Below, in pieces: positions 3,805-12,103 of a stretch of 13,641 nucleotides of DNA. The position numbers were made by a program, and so were the translations under genes. The notes below the pieces were generated by a model. That model was not told the origin of the DNA. It ran no database searches and saw nothing but the letters and a program-made list of their open reading frames with translations. Every line of letters starts with the position of its first letter. The first letter of the stretch is position 1. Where the stretch lies: positions 1 through 13,641 of the forward strand of contig JBDRFY010000021.1 in NCBI GenBank assembly GCA_043818275.1, read 5' to 3'. The DNA comes from a bacterium. Its GTDB lineage: Bacteria; Babelota; Babeliae; Babelales; JAUWHS01.

Positions 3805-5787
3805 ATGAGTAAAAAAAAATTTTTCTATTTTGCCTTAATACCAATTTTAGCCTACTTATTTATAAGTTTTTTTATCGTCAAAGATTACGGAATCATGATT
3901 GATGATCCGGAACAATTTGGAGTTGGACATAAAAATCTTAATTATTATGTAACAGGAAAACTTGATTATAAAAATGATGAACCTGAAATTAAAGATCATC
4001 CCAATTTTTATAATTATATCGTAAAAACCAGACCCCATCATGTCTGGCCATTTACCCCAATGCTATCTGCGGCCACATGTAAACTATTTTTTGAAAAACT
4101 AAATTGCCTTCCTCCAATTCCAGCACATCATTTTATAATTCCAATATTAACCGCTATGTTTTTTTTATTATTTTTCTTTTTTGTTCGCAGATGGTGGGGA
4201 AATCTTGCTGGTATATGCGCAATTTTACTTTTAATGACCTTGCCCAGATTTTTTGGACATAGCTTATCAAATATAAAAGATTTGCCTGAAGTTTTATTCT
4301 TCAGTCTAACAATTATGTATTTTATGGATTGGTATTTATGGAACCGCTCTAATCCTTCGACTTCGCTCCCTACTTCGCCAAGGCTTCGCAGGGCAGGCAG
4401 GACGAGCGGAATTCAAAGTTTTTTTTCAAACATAATAAATAAATTTAAATATCAACCAAAGAACAAAACTTTTACATCAAAAACAAAAAACCCCGCCCCG
4501 CTCGTCCTCACTTCGACTCGCTTACACTCGATCAGTATGAGCGCAAGACATCTTCGGTCCGATCATTCTGAGGGTAGCACAGCGAAATCGAAGAAAGGAT
4601 ATCAACATACAAAATATCTTTACCTATCATTTCTTTTCTTCGGCCTTGCATTTGCAACTAAAGCTGATGCTATTTTTGTAATTCCAATTCTTGGTTTGTG
4701 GTTATTACCAGATTTGATAAATGGGTTAATAAAAAACGGCTCAATTAAATTGAGAACATTGTTTCATTTTTGTGTTGGTGGATTAATATCTTTTTTCTTT
4801 ATTTTCTTTACCTACCCTCAACTTCAACCATGGTACTACAAAAGTAATTACGATTTTTTAGTTCAGGCTCCAAAATTTATTTATACTCTTGCGCGTTATG
4901 TTATTGGAATTGGTGGCGATATTGATTCAAGATGGAATCTTTATTCAATTAAGCAAATTTTTTATACAACACCTGTTTTAATACTTTTATTTTTTACAAT
5001 CGGATTTTTGTTCTTACTTACAAACCTAAAACAAAAAAAAAGCTCCGCTCGCCCTGCCTGCCCTGCGAAGCCTTGGCGAAGTAGGGAGCGTAGTCGAAGG
5101 GTAAACCTTATTTTGCTTATCTGGCTACTATTACCCATCTTGCGCCACTGCATGCCAAAAGTAAATCACTACGATGGCTTGCGGCATTTTATGGTTTTTA
5201 TGGTTCCATTTATAATTATTACAACAATTGGAATTATAAATTTTGCTAAATTCATTTCGAAAAAATTAAATTTAAAACAAAACATAACTGAAATAATTTT
5301 TCTAATTATTGTGCTCATACCAAATATTTATTCCGTAATCACACTACATCCATATCAAACAACTTTTTATAATAAAATTATTGGGGGGCTTGGTGACGCG
5401 CAAAAAAAAGATATTCCATTTAGCTCTGATTATTGGTTTAATTCAAATCTGGAACTTGGTCAATGGATCAATAAAAATGCAAAACAAAACGCAAATATTC
5501 ACGGACCATTTATTGATTATTATTTAAACCCTTCGAGATGCTCCCAGCTTCACCAAGGTTTCGCAGGGCAAGCAGGGCGAACGGGAGATTTAAAAATAAT
5601 TAATTTAGATAAAAAAGATGAAATTCCCCAAAATACATACATTGTTGAAATACCAAGACGCTGGTATCGGTTAGATCAAAAAATCCCATTAATTTCTGAT
5701 CTAATTCCTGAAATTAAAAATTTAGAAATTGTTTATCAAATCAAAAGACAAAACGGAATAATCGGAACAATTTATTATAAAAAATAG
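3805..5787 (+). CDS. ArnT/PMT-like (GT-C fold) membrane glycosyltransferase carrying palindromic repeat insertions in an intact frame
   Basis: Acidic DDPE motif after the first TM, PRFFGHSLSNIKD, GLAFATK, YDGLRHF and many TM segments. Four Arg/Ser/Pro-rich stretches coincide with GC-rich repeats. Confidence 0.85.
   Translation: MSKKKFFYFALIPILAYLFISFFIVKDYGIMIDDPEQFGVGHKNLNYYVTGKLDYKNDEPEIKDHPNFYNYIVKTRPHHVWPFTPMLSAATCKLFFEKLNCLPPIPAHHFIIPILTAMFFLLFFFFVRRWWGNLAGICAILLLMTLPRFFGHSLSNIKDLPEVLFFSLTIMYFMDWYLWNRSNPSTSLPTSPRLRRAGRTSGIQSFFSNIINKFKYQPKNKTFTSKTKNPAPLVLTSTRLHSISMSARHLRSDHSEGSTAKSKKGYQHTKYLYLSFLFFGLAFATKADAIFVIPILGLWLLPDLINGLIKNGSIKLRTLFHFCVGGLISFFFIFFTYPQLQPWYYKSNYDFLVQAPKFIYTLARYVIGIGGDIDSRWNLYSIKQIFYTTPVLILLFFTIGFLFLLTNLKQKKSSARPACPAKPWRSRERSRRVNLILLIWLLLPILRHCMPKVNHYDGLRHFMVFMVPFIIITTIGIINFAKFISKKLNLKQNITEIIFLIIVLIPNIYSVITLHPYQTTFYNKIIGGLGDAQKKDIPFSSDYWFNSNLELGQWINKNAKQNANIHGPFIDYYLNPSRCSQLHQGFAGQAGRTGDLKIINLDKKDEIPQNTYIVEIPRRWYRLDQKIPLISDLIPEIKNLEIVYQIKRQNGIIGTIYYKK
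4344..4410 (+). repeat. Palindromic REP-like element, copy 1 (forward), inside the GT CDS
   Basis: CCGCTC...GAGCGG closing stem. 57-bp core 4354-4410 is 65% GC (37/57) and 55/57 identical to the reverse complement of 5044-5100. Confidence 0.9.
4498..4600 (-). repeat. Composite REP-like element, copy 2 (inverted partner of copy 1), inside the GT CDS
   Basis: CCGCTCGTCCT (4498-4508) is the exact reverse complement of 4399-4409. AAGGAT (4595-4600) mirrors ATCCTT (4352-4357). Contains further CTTCG/CGAAG sub-elements. Confidence 0.75.
5044..5100 (-). repeat. Palindromic REP-like element, copy 3 (reverse), inside the GT CDS
   Basis: Reverse complement of copy 1 with 2 mismatches; translated here as SARPACPAKPWRSRERSRR. 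Confidence 0.9.
5530..5585 (+). repeat. Diverged REP-like element, copy 4 (forward), inside the GT CDS
   Basis: About 47/57 identical to the reverse complement of copy 3 by hand alignment; translated as PSRCSQLHQGFAGQAGRTG. Confidence 0.85.
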
Positions 5788-5818: not shown

Positions 5819-7882
5819 TTACGCAGCAACTGAAGACTCAACAACCTTATTATTATTCATCGCCTCATGAGCTTCTCTTAAAATGTCACTATCAAAACCG
5901 GATTGACGTAATAAATCTAGAGCTATTTTTTGATCAGTAAGACCTTGCTCAAGTTTGTATGTAAATTTGATATTTCCATATTCATCTTTATTTACATAAA
6001 CTTTGTAATTTTTACATACCCCATCGGTATCTTTTTCCAGTCTGCCTAATTGCGTAACAAAGTGTGTTGCGTTTATAGATAAATGATGATTTAATCTGGA
6101 GAGTTTTTTCAAAATACCATAAGCGGCAGCTGAACCTTCTTCAGGATTTGTTCCTGTAAAAACTTCATCCATTATTATAAAACTAAACTGATTTGGTTGT
6201 AGTTCTGAAACCATATCGATAAGTTTTTTTGCTCTATTCATTTCGGCCTGAAATAGTGATTCCTGACCAACCGCATCAGTAATATTTAGATATGTATTCA
6301 TCAAAGTAAACGGTGTCAATTTTATTTGATTTGCCGGAGCGATACCAAAAGATTGCGCAAAAATAAGATTGATTGTTATAGCCTTAAGAACCGTAGACTT
6401 ACCACCAGCATTAGGCCCCGTTAAAATAATATTTCTGTTGGTTTTCCCAATTTCAAGATTATTTGTAATAACTTTATCTACATCTAATTCCGGATGCCAA
6501 AATTCTTTAATTTCAAATGTCGGTTTATCTAATTCCAGATATTCAACAAATGAGTATTTTGCATTTTCTTTTTTTTCGTATTTTTTGAAAAGCTTTGCAA
6601 TAGACATATAAGCGTCAAGTCGCCCAACAGATCTTAACTGACTAATCAATTGATCCTTAACTTCATACATTTTTTTGTAAGCCGCCAAAATTTTTCCATT
6701 CAAACTAAACATGGAATATTTCTTTTTAAATGTTCTGGTACTTAAAGTTTTAAAAAACTTATTAACTTCTACATCATCTTGAACTAAACCTGGTAACATA
6801 TTTTTAATCACATCATAATTCAAAGTTTTATTTGAAATATTTTGAACAGAACCTTCCAACTCTGCAACGCAAGACATTTTATTATGAACCCATTTAATTC
6901 TTTCATAATTAGCATTTGCATTGTCATAAATATTATTTACACCAAACATTTTAAACGCGCCGTTAAACAATAAATTAAAACCAAGAGCCCAGGCTCCAGC
7001 TCTAGCCGCAACACTGGCGACAGAAACCCAGGGGGCCCCTAAAGGAATAGCAATAGTCCAACCAAACCAAAAAACAGTTCCCATGGAAGCAATTGAAGGA
7101 ACAGCAGCAGGAAGTATTTGCATATTAATAATATCATGCTTAAATTCCATTGGGGTTTGTTGATTATTCACCCCCTTAAACATTTTATTATTAAAATATA
7201 ATTCGCGTGAAAAATCTGACAATTTACCGTCCTCAAGCACTTTCCAAAACCACGCCAATTCATGTTCATTTTTTTTAATTTGATCCAACTCTTTTTCTAA
7301 AAAATTAAATAACTTTTCGTCTTTAACTAATAAACGAATAATTTCTTGTCGTTTTTTTAATTCCTGAATATTTGCGGTAGGTAAAAACAATATTTTTTGT
7401 AACTCAATTTTTCCCGCTGTAGTAACCGTATTATCAATATGCTTAAATAAATTTTTATTCAAATCAGACTTATCGCCACAAAAAACATTAAGATCATTAA
7501 AAACATTTTTATTAAGAATATTTTGCTCTTTTTTCGTTGAAACAATATTTTTATTACCAGCCTCTCTACCAGAAAGAATGTGATAAAAAAGACGTAATGT
7601 TTCTACGCTACCTATTTTAATTGGTTTCTTTTTAAATTCCTGACCAACTTTTAATTTTGAATTTTCATTAATAACTTTCATCTGAGCTTCAAGTTCTTCT
7701 TTTTCCTGAGCAGCCAAAGTTGGCAAATATAAATCAGCAATATCATTGTAATAATCAAGTCCCTTTTCACTATTTGCTAACTGCGCAACTCCAGCCGGAT
7801 TAATAGATAAAACATCTTTGGCAAATAAACAAGCAAAAGCAAAGACAATAACGTTTTTAAATTTTTTAGAAAAAACAAACAT
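5819..7882 (-). CDS. MutS-related ATPase (domain V plus partial core) with signal peptide and internal hydrophobic segment; paralog 1
   Basis: Walker A GPNAGGKST, ESLFQAEM, Walker B IIMDEVFTGT, ATHF. No recognisable mismatch-binding domain I. Hydrophobic N-terminus. Confidence 0.85.
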   Translation of the reverse strand: MFVFSKKFKNVIVFAFACLFAKDVLSINPAGVAQLANSEKGLDYYNDIADLYLPTLAAQEKEELEAQMKVINENSKLKVGQEFKKKPIKIGSVETLRLFYHILSGREAGNKNIVSTKKEQNILNKNVFNDLNVFCGDKSDLNKNLFKHIDNTVTTAGKIELQKILFLPTANIQELKKRQEIIRLLVKDEKLFNFLEKELDQIKKNEHELAWFWKVLEDGKLSDFSRELYFNNKMFKGVNNQQTPMEFKHDIINMQILPAAVPSIASMGTVFWFGWTIAIPLGAPWVSVASVAARAGAWALGFNLLFNGAFKMFGVNNIYDNANANYERIKWVHNKMSCVAELEGSVQNISNKTLNYDVIKNMLPGLVQDDVEVNKFFKTLSTRTFKKKYSMFSLNGKILAAYKKMYEVKDQLISQLRSVGRLDAYMSIAKLFKKYEKKENAKYSFVEYLELDKPTFEIKEFWHPELDVDKVITNNLEIGKTNRNIILTGPNAGGKSTVLKAITINLIFAQSFGIAPANQIKLTPFTLMNTYLNITDAVGQESLFQAEMNRAKKLIDMVSELQPNQFSFIIMDEVFTGTNPEEGSAAAYGILKKLSRLNHHLSINATHFVTQLGRLEKDTDGVCKNYKVYVNKDEYGNIKFTYKLEQGLTDQKIALDLLRQSGFDSDILREAHEAMNNNKVVESSVAA

Positions 7883-8048: not shown

Positions 8049-10055
8049 TTAAGCTGCATTTAAAATATTATAAGCTTCACTTAAAATCTCATCTTCAAAA
8101 CCAGACTCTTGTAATAAATCAAGAGCGATAGCCTGATCTGTTACACCATCTTCCCATTTATATGGATACAAAATTTTACCATTTTCATCTTTATTAACAA
8201 AAACTTTATAATTTTTAAAAATTCCATCTGTATCTTGTTCAAGTCTGCTTAATTGTTCAACAAAATGTGTCGCATTTACAGATAAAAGATTAGTAAATCG
8301 TGAAAGACGTTTCAAAATACCATATGCTCCAGCAGCACCCTCTTTAGGATTTGTCCCCGTAAAGACCTCATCCATAATTATAAAACTAAATTCACTCGGT
8401 TTTAAATTTGCAATCATATTAATAAGCTTTTTGGCTCTATTCATTTCTGCCTGAAACAAGGACTCTTTGCCAATGGTATCTGTAACATTTAAATAAGTAT
8501 TAATAAGAGCAAATGGCGTTAATTTCATTTGAGAAGATGGTGCAATACCAAAAGATTGAGCCAAAATAAGATTTATTGTAATCGCTTTAAGAATAGTCGA
8601 TTTACCACCAGCATTTGGTCCTGTCAAAATAATATTTCTATTACCTAAACCAAGCGCAACATTATTTGTGACCACTTTTTTTGGATCCAATTCAGGGTGC
8701 CAAAAATTATTAATTTCAAAATATGGTTTATCAGACTCAAGATATTCAACAAAACAATATCTTGCATTTTCATTTGTCACATGTTTTTTATAAAGTTTTG
8801 CGATAGAAAGATAAGCATCAAGTTCACCAACAGCCTTTAATTGATCTATCAATAAATCTTTAATTTCATACATTTGTTTGTAAGAAGCTAAAATTCTTCC
8901 TTGAAAACTAAACACTGAAGGCTGGCCTTTAAATGTATTCTTATTTAATAAATTTAAAAACTTTTTAGCTTTTCTATCATTTTGATTAAGATGAGAAAGT
9001 TTTTTCATGATTGGGGTATAATTTTGCATTTTTTGAGCAATATCCTGAACGGCATTTTCCAACATTGCAACATCAATCATTTTTTGTTGAATATTTTTAG
9101 CGGTTATAATTTTATCTTCTATTTGATCCAATATGTTTGGAGCGCCGAATGCCTTTGAAATCACAGAACCAATAAGGAGAGCAAATAAATTAACTGCTAG
9201 ATATCCATACAATCCAACCAAGCTTACACCATTAATAAATTCAGCCTCATAAGCAACTATTCCTCCAGCAGCAATTACTCCAAACAATAAGGGTAAAATC
9301 AAACCCAAATTTAAAACATCATGACAATATTCCATTCCAAGAGAACTTTTATTCGCGCCTTGTAAAAATGATTTATTGAAATATAATTTCTCGAAATAAT
9401 TGTAAATTTCTTTTTCCAATGATTTAAAAAACCATGAGAACTCAGATTCTACCTTTTTAATCTTTTTTAAATATCCATCTAAATCATTAAATAATTTTGT
9501 ATCTAATATAAGCTTACGAATAATTTCTTGTCGCTGTTTTAAATCTGAAATATTTGTTGTTGGCTGATATAACATTTTTTGCAATTGAATCTTGCCAATC
9601 TTTGTCTGAGCATAATTTAATTTAGAAAAAAGATGATCTTGCAAAGATGATTTATCACCACAAAAAGCGTTAATATCACCTAGCGTATTTTCATTAAGAA
9701 CTTTTGTCATCACATTAGTTTTCGGATCCTTTTGTGATGCAAACATTTTGTACAAAAGCCGTAACGCTTCCACATTTCCAATACCTGCCAATTTAAAATC
9801 TTTACCATGTCCTTCTTTTAATTCTTTATTTAATTCATTGATTTTTTCAATTTCTTCGGACTCTCTCATTTCCTCTTTGACCAAAGAAGGTAAATATAAA
9901 TTCGCAAGTTCATTATAATGTTCAGCTTCGTATTTAATTACATCTTTTTTCGCCTTAGCAAGAGAAGGAGAAATCAAATTCAAACATAATAAAATTGAAA
10001 ATACCGTTACTATTTTTCGTTTATGATTTCTGACAAAAAACAATTTAAATTGCAT
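8049..10055 (-). CDS. MutS-related ATPase with signal peptide and internal hydrophobic segment; paralog 2
   Basis: Same motifs as paralog 1 (GPNAGGKST, ESLFQAEM, IIMDEVFTGTNP, ATHF) and collinear along its length (LYLP, FCGDKS, GKIxLQK, FWHPELD). Confidence 0.85.
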   Translation of the reverse strand: MQFKLFFVRNHKRKIVTVFSILLCLNLISPSLAKAKKDVIKYEAEHYNELANLYLPSLVKEEMRESEEIEKINELNKELKEGHGKDFKLAGIGNVEALRLLYKMFASQKDPKTNVMTKVLNENTLGDINAFCGDKSSLQDHLFSKLNYAQTKIGKIQLQKMLYQPTTNISDLKQRQEIIRKLILDTKLFNDLDGYLKKIKKVESEFSWFFKSLEKEIYNYFEKLYFNKSFLQGANKSSLGMEYCHDVLNLGLILPLLFGVIAAGGIVAYEAEFINGVSLVGLYGYLAVNLFALLIGSVISKAFGAPNILDQIEDKIITAKNIQQKMIDVAMLENAVQDIAQKMQNYTPIMKKLSHLNQNDRKAKKFLNLLNKNTFKGQPSVFSFQGRILASYKQMYEIKDLLIDQLKAVGELDAYLSIAKLYKKHVTNENARYCFVEYLESDKPYFEINNFWHPELDPKKVVTNNVALGLGNRNIILTGPNAGGKSTILKAITINLILAQSFGIAPSSQMKLTPFALINTYLNVTDTIGKESLFQAEMNRAKKLINMIANLKPSEFSFIIMDEVFTGTNPKEGAAGAYGILKRLSRFTNLLSVNATHFVEQLSRLEQDTDGIFKNYKVFVNKDENGKILYPYKWEDGVTDQAIALDLLQESGFEDEILSEAYNILNAA

Positions 10056-10137: not shown

Positions 10138-10223
10138 AAATAAATATATGGGCTGTTTTGCTTGCAAAATGAAGAATTTTTGGCAAACTTAAGAACATCT
10201 CAAAAGAATTCAAATTTCGGCCT

Positions 10224-10301
10224 GGGGCTGTAGCTCAGTTTGGTTAGAGCGTCCGCCTGTCACGCGGAAGGCCGCGAGTTCGAGTCTCGTCAGCCCCGCC
10301 A
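10224..10301 (+). tRNA. tRNA-Asp(GTC)
   Basis: Acceptor stem GGGGCTG/CAGCCCC, D-arm TAGCTCAGTTTGGTTAGAGC, anticodon arm TCCGC-CTGTCAC-GCGGA, T-loop TTCGAGT, encoded CCA end. Confidence 0.97.
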
Positions 10302-10338
10302 TACTACGCTCCTACGGAGCTTCGTATGGCTTCTCCAA
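10298..10338 (+). repeat. REP-like hairpin overlapping the tRNA 3' end (left arm of an inverted pair)
   Basis: GCCATAC/GTATGGC outer stem and GCTCC/GGAGC inner stem; CTACGC...GCTTCG core. Confidence 0.7.
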
Positions 10339-10380
10339 TTTCGCCAAAAAGGAAAAGATTGATAGAAATGTTAACTTAGC

Positions 10381-10452
10381 TTGGAGCGGAGTATGCCCTT
10401 CGAAGCTAGGATTATTCGAAGCTTTAGCTAAGAAGAATCTGCGTAGTAGGGC
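10381..10452 (-). repeat. Nested REP-like hairpin upstream of the GIY-YIG gene (right arm of the inverted pair)
   Basis: Reverse complement reads GCCCTACTACGC...AGCTTCGAAGGGC...CTCCAA, homologous to the left arm GCCATACTACGC...AGCTTCGTATGGC..CTCCAA. An inner copy ATTATTCGAAGCTTTAGCTAAGAAGAAT lies at 10411-10438. Confidence 0.7.
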
Positions 10453-10478
10453 TAATTGAATTTTCCCAGGAAACAATT

Positions 10479-10721
10479 ATGTTTTATGTATATCTACTTA
10501 AATCAATAAGAACTTCAAATAAAACTTATATTGGTTACACAACTAATCTTAAAGAACGAGTCAAAAAACATAACGAAGGAGGCTCCATTTACACCAAAAA
10601 TGATCATCCATGGGAATTAATAGCATATATAGCTCTTAATAGTGAAGCTAAAGCAAAATCAATGGAAAAATATTTAAAAGAAGGTTCAGGCCACGCCTTT
10701 GCTAAAAAACGTTTTTGGTAA
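10479..10721 (+). CDS. Small stand-alone GIY-YIG nuclease (SLX1/YhbQ-like)
   Basis: FYVYLL...YIGYT, catalytic Arg in LKERVKKHN, YTK..PW and conserved Glu in MEKYLK. Confidence 0.9.
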   Translation: MFYVYLLKSIRTSNKTYIGYTTNLKERVKKHNEGGSIYTKNDHPWELIAYIALNSEAKAKSMEKYLKEGSGHAFAKKRFW

Positions 10722-10754
10722 TTTTTGTTTTAAAAAAGATTTTATCAAAAATAA

Positions 10755-11162
10755 TTATTTTTTACTTTTGACTTTATAAACTTTTGGCTCAGCTCTAGAA
10801 ATTATATCTACACAATAATCTTGATCTCCGGCAATATAATGTTTTAAATCTGGATTTATCGCTAAAAGTATCCCCTCTGCTTCTTCATCTAATTTTTTTA
10901 AATATTCAGAATCTATTGCTTCAGTTACAAGGCCTCCTGTTAATTCTTCATCTACATGATGATCTAGACGACGCCCCTCATCAGAAACCCTATAATCCAT
11001 AACTGCCCCCCCAAAATCAAAAACAATATCATATTTATCGTCTTTATTGTTATGAAATACTATTTTAAATCCATTTTTATCTGTTAGAATCTGTGATATA
11101 AAATATTCAAAACTCTGCGGTTGCCCCAGTTTATCGGGAAGTTTAAAATCTACATATTTCAT
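10755..11162 (-). CDS. Probable immunity protein cognate to the upstream toxin
   Basis: ATGA overlap with the toxin stop. Acidic 135 aa. The YRVSDEG..RL, SEYL and HY...VDIIS..EP pattern resembles, from memory, CdiI-type immunity proteins. Confidence 0.7.
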   Translation of the reverse strand: MKYVDFKLPDKLGQPQSFEYFISQILTDKNGFKIVFHNNKDDKYDIVFDFGGAVMDYRVSDEGRRLDHHVDEELTGGLVTEAIDSEYLKKLDEEAEGILLAINPDLKHYIAGDQDYCVDIISRAEPKVYKVKSKK

Positions 11163-12103
11163 TTAACGTTATACCTTATTTTAATGTAATCATGTTTTCC
11201 TAACTGTATTTCTATCGTTGGCTTATTACCTGACTTTTTACTACTAAAACCTCTTCTTATTATAGGCTCGCCATTTTTAGTTTTACTAATTTGAATTGGA
11301 CCATTTTTTGTATTTTTATATTCAACATCATTTCCATCCCTAAGTTTATCAAAATCTTCTTGAGACTGGCTTTCTCCAGCATCCTTTTCCCAAACATCTG
11401 CTTCCCCTCCAGCGCCTCGATCAGGTGGTTCTTTCGCATCTATTAATACATCATCCAATCCATCGGTAGTTCGTCTTTTATTTTTACTTTTTTTCTTCTT
11501 GCTAAAATGATGATCTATTGCTTTAACTGTTGCAACCGTTGCCACCACAAATGTAGCTTCAACAACCTTTTCTAAAATTGGATACAATAATATTGAAAGT
11601 TCTATTGCAAAATTATGAACTAAAACATTAGTTCCATTTTCTGATTTAATTAAAAAAAGATTTCCGTCTTCAATTGAAATTTCATACAAATCTATTGGAT
11701 CAGGTAAATCATCAATTTCAACTAGTCTTATTTCCAGGTTGCCTTTTTCCGGAGAAAATAACTTATCCCCCGCTTTTAATTCTTCAGCAGGAATGAACTT
11801 TTTAATCCGTCGATTATAAACTTTCTGTTTCAGGCCAAAAGCAAATAATTCCGAATCTGTTTCTACCAATACAATCTTTTTGATTCTTTTTTTATTTATC
11901 TCTTCGATCTTACATGATTTTTCTATTTTTTTTCTTGGAATGTTATAAACAAGTAATTGATCTCCAACTTTTAACTCGTCAACTCGCTTATAAACCCCTT
12001 CGTCAACAAGAACTCGTGTATCTGGAAGTAAGCCTGAAAATAAATTGTTTGTGATTAAACAGAGAAAAAGAACAAATAAAATCTTTTTTGATTTATTCAA
12101 CAC
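11159..12103 (-). CDS. Polymorphic toxin: signal peptide, Hint domain, hydrophobic linker and C-terminal putative RNase (CdiA-CT-like) domain
   Basis: GTG start with AGGAG RBS. Hint domain GLLPDTRV..RVDELKVGD..AEELKAGD..LYEISIE..VLVHN (aa 24-164). C-terminus EDFDKL..RGFSS..KPTIEIQ..KIRY. Confidence 0.8.
   Translation of the reverse strand: MLNKSKKILFVLFLCLITNNLFSGLLPDTRVLVDEGVYKRVDELKVGDQLLVYNIPRKKIEKSCKIEEINKKRIKKIVLVETDSELFAFGLKQKVYNRRIKKFIPAEELKAGDKLFSPEKGNLEIRLVEIDDLPDPIDLYEISIEDGNLFLIKSENGTNVLVHNFAIELSILLYPILEKVVEATFVVATVATVKAIDHHFSKKKKSKNKRRTTDGLDDVLIDAKEPPDRGAGGEADVWEKDAGESQSQEDFDKLRDGNDVEYKNTKNGPIQISKTKNGEPIIRRGFSSKKSGNKPTIEIQLGKHDYIKIRYNVK
11612..12034 (-). other. Hint (intein-like) autoprocessing domain within the toxin
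   Basis: Block A-like start with Gly in place of Cys1; terminal His-Asn at 11617-11612, followed by Phe. Confidence 0.8.

Follow-up and report, generated by a model that had tools for sequence, protein, structure and literature searches.

Small GIY-YIG nucleases have been linked to palindromic repeats in the Ssn family (SsnA, cd10448), which is accompanied by NTS/SRM repeats (Chenal et al. 2025, PMC11893778). In the sections of that paper cited here, SsnA binds one strand of its own hairpin, the cut falling a few bases 5′ of the bound sequence, the authors themselves draw the parallel to REP and IS200 elements, and the spread of transposase-less repeats is raised as a hypothesis. REP/REPIN-RAYT systems form inverted doublets whose spacer ends pair, with many gene-less copies, nesting and one linked family of small enzymes, an HUH tyrosine transposase (Y1, PF01797), according to the cited sections of Bertels and Rainey 2011 (PMC3116915). 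The CGTC-tagged REPs and the Rickettsia RPE are palindromes without a dedicated transposase, some of them translated in frame, and the passages cited from Di Nocera 2013 (PMC3733652) leave the spread of the CGTC repeats as an open question. Among GIY-YIG enzymes, the stand-alone Slx1-like and UPF0213 proteins consist of a minimal domain and are presented in the cited part of Dunin-Horkawicz 2006 (PMC1564403; PDB 1zg2, 7wme, 7cq2) as vertically inherited repair enzymes, and T4 SegB, encoded among tRNA genes, promotes its own inheritance by phage dsDNA homing between allelic sites (PMC2330249, cited in part).

The window, meaning the whole 13,641-nt stretch of DNA that was analysed, is contig C21 of a 1.33-Mb genome with 31% G+C, whose best homologs with a name come from Dependentiae/Babeliales, the probable origin of the DNA. 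It carries a tRNA-Asp(GTC) gene (10224-10301, plus strand; ARAGORN, Rfam RF00005) whose encoded CCA (10299-10301) is at the same time the start of an element that ends in a stand-alone GIY-YIG nuclease ORF of 80 aa (10479-10721, plus strand; Pfam PF01541 and a structure match, Slx1-lineage fold). The tRNA-proximal hairpin (10299-10329, plus strand), identified by DNA folding and covariation as a member of what we call family A, reads CCA-NN-CTWCGC-loop-GCTWCG-N′N′-TGG, so that its arm CCATA (10299-10303) begins inside the CCA of the tRNA. Variable paired arms surround a fixed mismatched core, and positions 10298-10330 folded as DNA give -9.8 kcal/mol (z -3.07). The spacer that follows (10330-10381, no strand) holds a second CCA at 10335-10337, which belongs to a decayed mini-hairpin, TGGC..GCCA, that is intact in 71 of 83 left elements. 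At 10382-10395 (no strand) lies an inverted copy of 10300-10313, identical at 12 of 14 bases, whose terminal TG faces the CA of the tRNA CCA and closes a long stem across the spacer. A gene-proximal family-A hairpin is inverted at 10396-10451 (minus strand) and has a degenerate nested hairpin in its loop at about 10410-10439; the plus strand of 10375-10460, folded alone, does not reach significance (z -1.46).

A sequence-only reading of this DNA had placed two hairpins upstream of the nuclease gene, and both are present between tRNA and gene, although the left one stops at 10330 rather than 10338 and begins within the tRNA CCA, a point absent from that reading. What it drew as one right hairpin (10381-10452) is in fact two parts, the inverted copy at 10382-10395 and the minus-strand hairpin at 10396-10451. 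The spacer of about 42 nt that it called AT-rich is indeed 69% A+T, but this equals the genome value, so the spacer is AT-rich only beside the repeats. Its stand-alone 80-residue GIY-YIG protein was confirmed (PF01541, E 5.6e-14, residues 1-70). Transposase families and integrases found no match in the 10 window ORFs scanned (17 listed), and the genome's six Y1_Tnp matches lie elsewhere. Rfam gave the tRNA as the sole RNA family match over 10200-10800, a consensus scan of the spacer returned no promoter, and NCBIfam had no family for the four window proteins queried. The unit itself contains no transposase, integrase or reverse transcriptase, and docking on tRNA CCA ends is its defining feature.

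The neighbourhood differs between the window genome (G000) and a congener (G001). Upstream, tandem MutS-like paralogs (5819-7882 and 8049-10055, both minus strand) have only MutS_III and MutS_V domains and hydrophobic, signal-like N-termini; both are retained in the congener at 75-78% identity, where an AAA_14/DUF4143 gene (L358:6699-7853, minus strand), absent from the window, lies between the glycosyltransferase gene and the MutS-like pair. Downstream, an ORF with a pretoxin HINT domain (11159-12103, minus strand; PF07591, E 1.1e-07) and an unassigned C-terminal part is overlapped at its end by a 135-aa ORF (10755-11162, minus strand), and the two resemble a toxin-immunity pair of the polymorphic kind. 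Since the congener carries a NUDIX gene and others at the position of this pair, the region that follows the cassette is a variable island.

The nuclease is a single domain with no second or DNA-binding domain. Conservation of residues Y5, Y17, G19, R27, H31 and E63 is 90% or higher at each position across 95 close homologs, and dN/dS was 0.07-0.30 in seven of seven nuclease pairs tried; by these measures the active-site pattern is intact and the gene is under purifying selection. An AlphaFold model (pLDDT 91) matched At-HIGLE, Slx1 and UPF0213 best and I-TevI far less well (E 0.56). Slx1-like/UPF0213 proteins are its closest matches in both sequence and fold and share its minimal domain; unlike those repair enzymes, the nucleases studied here are patchy, multicopy and bound to repeats and tRNA genes. 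The genome has four nuclease genes of the window type, none of them more than 330 nt away from the 3′ end of a tRNA; it also encodes UvrC and two small GIY-YIG proteins of a different type. Carriers in the same order have one to five copies, several with stops.

To relate these enzymes to one another, we built a quick-search IQ-TREE phylogeny of 181 small GIY-YIG domains (87 columns, many open forks). It contains an Ssn-type clade (24 rows, SH-aLRT 99), anchored not by CDD assignment but by the NTS-flanked homologs within it, which stand in for SsnA's own sequence; a clade B (25 rows, support 97); and a subclade A1 (84 rows, support 87; 83 rows, support 95) that includes nearly all hairpin-bearing genes. 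Clade A is presumably cd10449, and we take clade B to be cd10456/YhbQ. Rows with at least 200 nt of upstream sequence numbered 81 for A1, 43 for its sister clade A2, 25 for B and 23 for the Ssn type; 60 relative loci were taken from a longer list by rank and type. Hairpin A lies upstream of 54 of 81 A1 genes, 1 of 43 A2, 5 of 25 B and 0 of 23 Ssn-type genes, in line with the flank enrichment that the sequence-only reading had suggested checking; 27 of the 81 A1 genes have no upstream hairpin by the strict test, and at clade B loci hairpin A is nested in B repeats where seen. A tRNA or tmRNA gene occurs within 500 nt upstream at 58/81 A1, 8/43 A2, 0/25 B and 0/23 Ssn-type loci. Some A2 genes sit, by eye, between a palindrome-broken partial 5′ tRNA copy and a full downstream tRNA (L059, L069, L076, L081, L082, L086, L089, L090, L092), which is a different docking mode.

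Each clade has its own repeats. SRM is found beside 8 of 23 Ssn-type genes versus none of 81 A1 genes, and a family-B repeat beside 13/25 B versus 3/81 A1 genes. Clade B genes (L007 and L008, at C18:20566 and C75:30805; L256-L293) have an inverted repeat of their own on either side, CGCTCGTCCTGAG..TCGAAGG, so that clade B and its repeat form a third nuclease-hairpin pairing, outside Ssn. B and Ssn-type genes are commonly bracketed on both sides, whereas a downstream hairpin accompanies only 3/81 and 1/24 A1 genes, contrary to the idea that hairpins bracket the window-type gene.

The window nuclease resembles Ssn in several respects drawn from the cited parts of PMC11893778. It is a single GIY-YIG domain of under 100 residues (80 here; the Ssn criterion is under about 150 aa), SsnA residues Y6, Y17 and E64 correspond by position to Y5, Y17 and E63, and the gene lies beside a directional hairpin repeat that is dispersed in the genome and co-occurs with it, the hairpin itself being a different one. 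Membership in Ssn was rejected, since the nuclease falls outside the Ssn-type clade (SH-aLRT 99 in the quick tree), aligns with an NTS-flanked homolog over just 31 residues in BLAST, and is accompanied by no SRM either in its genome or beside its clade's genes (0/81). Its hairpins also differ in having a fixed core and variable stem, in standing upstream only and in docking on the tRNA CCA. The earlier proposal of a REP/RAYT-like system with another enzyme therefore stands as to the tie between hairpin and clade, but its principle is already published as Ssn/SRM for another clade. The main text of PMC11893778 has no match for tRNA or cd10449, and cd10449 has none in 12 of its 14 supplements; PMC3733652 has none for GIY, and tRNA-end docking is absent from the passages cited; the cited part of PMC3184786 has nothing on tRNA-end repeats; and the Minerva preprint (10.64898/2026.09.22.753630), in the portion used here, has SsnA repeats as a benchmark only and no match for GIY. 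Titles and abstract openings listed from open-access PMC and bioRxiv gave no description of a tRNA-docked unit. If, as is likely, the nuclease cuts and spreads its own hairpin, the unit would be an apparently undescribed selfish element that resembles the Ssn nucleases without being a member.

The leader between tRNA and gene is conserved in plan. Its distal half is present in 41 of 83 CCA-type left elements. In this half, complementarity to the left side is seen for the two variable bases, which match the arm in 36 of 41 (shuffle mean 9.4), and for the core in 37 of 41 (shuffle mean 20.3). A long stem that begins at the CA of CCA and ends in a TG abutting a second hairpin occurs in 38/81 and 12/24 A1 loci, two sets with one locus in common, and in none of 91 loci of the other clades (0/43, 0/25, 0/23); shuffles gave 0-1 of 105. 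Since stem and second hairpin recur at A1 loci, the inverted hairpin pair is a conserved leader similar to a REPIN doublet, with the paired spacer ends also seen in REPINs. The two bases that follow the second CCA are identical to the arm in 18 of 71 cases (shuffle mean 9.2). A target-site duplication was considered and rejected, as the second CCA and T run are common to units on different tRNAs, and insertions into family B show no duplication beyond one base. Reverse transcription primed by the tRNA was also discarded: by eye, the bases after TGG are not complementary to the tRNA end.

On its pyrimidine strand, family A has a 5-base arm, CTWCGC, a variable loop, GCTWCG and the complementary arm, often with CANG, and it carries neither a CGTC nor a GTAG tag. 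Our finder made 80 matches in the genome; the reversed genome gave 1, and five local shuffles gave 0, 0, 1, 0 and 1. A query for the core only, with no stem required, gave 189 distinct matches, in which flank positions 1-5 pair above all 500 shuffles, positions 6-8 do not, and the two W positions show all four combinations. The hairpin stands in full after 24 of 46 ARAGORN tRNA/tmRNA genes and in part after 2, with further variants by eye. Among the metagenome matches listed, 81 of 111 distinct window-type hairpins begin in the CCA of a called tRNA or tmRNA, for a query pattern that itself starts with CCA. Viral contigs contributed six loci, two of them full-length. In the genome, tmRNA and tRNA-Ala(GGC) are each encoded twice (C34, C78; C53, C69), the tmRNA copies differing slightly in their tags, and these duplicates may reflect the assembly's 4% contamination.

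A very unlikely explanation is that these hairpins are RNA signals for tRNA 3′ processing or termination, with an ordinary Slx1-like repair enzyme lying behind tRNAs by chance. The stem does pair with the CCA, a T run often comes after it, and the loops include CUUCGG/CUACGG-like motifs, a type known for its stability. A repair role is also what the cited part of PMC1564403 predicts for prokaryotic Slx1 homologs. Yet the terminator scan was negative at the hairpin, 23 of 61 genomes have no hairpin pattern, tRNAs that carry it in one congener are bare in the other, and the hairpin occurs in both orientations inside genes and other repeats. Of the two strands, the purine strand, which is antisense to the tRNA, gives the better DNA fold in 158 of the 189 matches. 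The GWA/GWA loop of the purine strand (a 3x3 inner loop) could form sheared G.A pairs, as DNA chemistry would suggest.

Hairpin A also lands in other hairpins. Family B has 88 copies in the genome. In 11 of these hairpin A sits at the same point, and reading by eye gives at least seven different arms. Three such composites interrupt the glycosyltransferase gene (PMT_2) of the window, and the G001 ortholog is without all three inserts. The first is a family-B repeat (4354-4410, plus strand) with a family-A hairpin at 4368-4393, within an in-frame insertion of about 4338-4610 (net 255 nt); the second (5044-5100, minus strand; hairpin A at 5061-5086) and the decayed third (5530-5584, plus strand) belong to in-frame insertions of net 66 and 51 nt. 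An inverted, more complex family-B copy at 4498-4600 closes the first insertion, which is thus a B doublet around an AT-rich spacer, translated in frame as some CGTC-tagged REPs are. The sequence-only reading had matched the reverse complement of the right arm to the inner module of these repeats, and the match is real at 4368-4393 and 5061-5086. The intragenic hairpins are nested in another clade's repeat family; because the inserts are composites whose outer part is family B, the window nuclease need not have moved them, and the jump into the glycosyltransferase gene may be the work of clade B. Elsewhere in the genome, hairpin A lies inside RAYT-type and SRM-like repeats (C18:34813, C22:10045, C62:51457; C13:10216, C27:15445, C75:29302), the latter holding it though no Ssn-type gene is among the genome's seven GIY-YIG matches. 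In all it was found in three other repeat families and at many non-tRNA sites, in both orientations.

We compared hairpin and nuclease across 60 genomes of the same order, counting as strong a nuclease match of E ≤1e-10. The strict hairpin pattern occurs in 33 of 35 genomes with the nuclease, compared to 4 of 25 without, a contrast also seen within several families, and the two carriers that lack the strict pattern have variant hairpins. Y1_Tnp, by comparison, does not predict the hairpin (17/23 with, 20/37 without; p 0.17). Fisher tests on all these counts overstate significance, because related genomes are not independent. A second class of 149 genomes (the class of L022, titled Alphaproteobacteria, with the seed and one further genome left out) was searched with a stricter pattern with a four-base loop, which occurs in 9/20 carriers compared to 5/129 others. 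Of its 24 nuclease genes, 17 follow a tRNA, and the loci of the 11 carriers (of 20) that miss the strict pattern mostly show variant leaders. The hairpin occurs without a detected nuclease in four same-order and five second-class genomes. Hairpin number is uncorrelated with nuclease number among the 35 carriers (rho 0.07), a relation that the sequence-only reading had proposed to check. Of the refuting outcomes named in that reading, the two open to computation were not seen: homologs do carry the hairpin, and its presence follows the nuclease rather than a Y1 transposase.

These comparisons bear on whether a RAYT or IS200-type Y1 transposase elsewhere moves the hairpin, with the GIY-YIG gene as a passenger. 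This is highly improbable and largely refuted by genome co-occurrence and metagenome neighbours, even though the genome has six Y1_Tnp matches and hairpin A lies inside RAYT-type repeats and upstream of the Y1_Tnp gene on C59. RAYT-like genes carry their own, different palindromes; 20 of 37 Y1-free genomes have the hairpin, in 18 of 20 nuclease carriers compared to 2 of 17 non-carriers; and only 2 of 8 genomes with Y1 and no strong nuclease match have it. Among the 111 metagenome matches listed, a nuclease was near 14, a Y1 transposase near 1, and clade B or Ssn genes near none. The sequence comparisons thus support a tie of the hairpin family to the GIY-YIG clade of the window and not to RAYT. 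The unit shares with REPIN-RAYT many gene-less copies, one linked small enzyme family and nesting, but its enzyme is a hydrolytic GIY-YIG nuclease, its target is a fixed tRNA end and many of its hairpins are single, unlike the systems in the cited sections of PMC3116915.

The units have moved among tRNA genes. Among 57 A1 rows, 12 tRNA/tmRNA types lie upstream, and supported sister pairs sit on different tRNAs: Phe/Pro (99), Gly/Phe (99) and Gly/Glu (96). Where the members of a pair follow different tRNAs (L305/L306, L094/L099), the alignable stretch starts at the CCA and reaches roughly the stop codon, and the right border is not conserved in three pairs on different tRNAs. In the congener, 16 of 34 retrieved tRNA genes are filled. 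With tRNAs paired by anticodon, six are occupied in G000 alone and two in G001 alone, and sites filled in both mostly have different, internally paired arms, so that gain, loss and replacement have occurred at tRNA genes between two congeners. At tRNA-Asp, synteny holds up to the tRNA and the plan is the same, with other arms and different genes downstream. The nucleases there are 56% identical, compared to 61-78% for the neighbours, and replacement of this cassette between G000 and G001 is plausible, at an AU test p of 0.29. At one locus (L119, G058:C49) identical cassettes stand in tandem, each gene followed by a right-end hairpin and a 19-nt tRNA-Arg 3′-end copy, which may be the complete form of the element. 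A duplicated tRNA 3′ end at the far border is one mark of tRNA-targeting integrative elements; the other, an integrase gene, had no match among the 10 window ORFs scanned.

Alternatively, the nuclease could have been domesticated in an Ssn-like manner and cut hairpin ssDNA for the host, limiting or steering how incoming or integrating DNA recombines at tRNA genes while the repeats spread otherwise. SsnA lowers the integration of NTS-bearing transforming DNA in N. meningitidis, according to the cited part of PMC11893778. The purifying selection on the nuclease, its repeated occurrence after tRNA-Lys/Glu and tRNA-Asp across several families, the clustering of tRNA labels on the tree (30 changes versus 40.5 in shuffles) and the differing DNA downstream of the gene in G000 and G001, as at an integration hot spot, point the same way. 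We consider such a role unlikely, given the patchy distribution (35 of 60 relatives), the varying copy number (1-5) with several stops, the 12 tRNA types and the exact CCA border between units on different tRNAs. It is not exclusive of the selfish cassette that we favour, and the two are compatible.

Homing is a further way to fill tRNA genes: the enzyme would cut the dsDNA of an empty tRNA 3′ end, the leader would protect occupied alleles and break repair would copy the cassette, as for T4 SegB, whose cluster of tRNA genes is a precedent (PMC2330249, cited in part). An exact left and ragged right border fit one-sided gene conversion, and the tRNA 3′-end copy after the gene at L119 is also in its favour. 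The idea is nonetheless improbable here. SegB homes between allelic sites with no hairpin family, whereas the window protein has the Slx1-type minimal fold and lacks the UvrC-lineage domain with separate DNA-binding part of the I-TevI/SegB homing enzymes; its nearest structures are Slx1/HIGLE and UPF0213. The units move among unrelated tRNA genes without flanking homology, the hairpin is also in the three other repeat families and at many non-tRNA sites, and by script about 18 of the 46 tRNA genes are unoccupied in this genome, which has four copies of the nuclease gene.

With the anatomy, the exact left border at the CCA and the clade-specific pairing of nuclease and hairpin observed, we propose that the hairpin leader and the 80-residue GIY-YIG gene on the tRNA CCA are probably a selfish cassette, whose nuclease is predicted to nick its own hairpin as ssDNA and so to spread the cassette and gene-less hairpins. 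By analogy with SsnA, the nuclease would bind one strand of its hairpin, from its sequence likely the purine strand CGWAG..GCGWAG, and cut beside the base. The nick would then prime host recombination or template switching, the weakest step of the scheme, and the leader, with or without the gene, would be copied to the end of a different tRNA gene or into a hairpin repeat elsewhere. Such a nick-and-copy mechanism fits the exact left border, the ragged right border, the lack of a joining enzyme and the inverted left-arm copy; the joining step is hypothetical because the nuclease alone cannot join strands. Counting against the proposal are the missing conserved right end, which a cut-and-paste unit would need (a downstream hairpin is seen in just 3/81 genes), the lack of copy-number scaling among carriers, the genomes with the hairpin and no detected nuclease, and the A1 genes without an upstream hairpin by the strict test. 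More tentatively, the unit may represent a minimal mobile element made of an 80-residue nuclease and a folded ssDNA leader, with no transposase, integrase or reverse transcriptase. Such an element would read DNA structure to dock on the universal CCA end of tRNA and tmRNA genes, and its hairpin would also enter those of other repeat systems.

Several bacterial groups contain related units, which follow a wide range of tRNA genes. The question of how such repeats spread is testable here, with one small enzyme, one hairpin, an exact docking point and congeners whose sites are filled or empty. If the broader reading is true, the window nuclease's clade, clade B and Ssn would be three separate small GIY-YIG clades, each driving a palindromic repeat family of its own, the missing mobiliser of many 'orphan' REP-like repeats would be named, and two more sets of sequence-specific ssDNA cutters would be added. 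If the enzyme cuts its own hairpin, site-specific ssDNA nucleases would extend beyond cd10448 to a second clade, with clade B as a third, and could be a source of tools. Many 'putative endonuclease' genes behind tRNAs would be reassigned from repair to selfish DNA, and the in-frame palindromic inserts in proteins of these bacteria would be accounted for.
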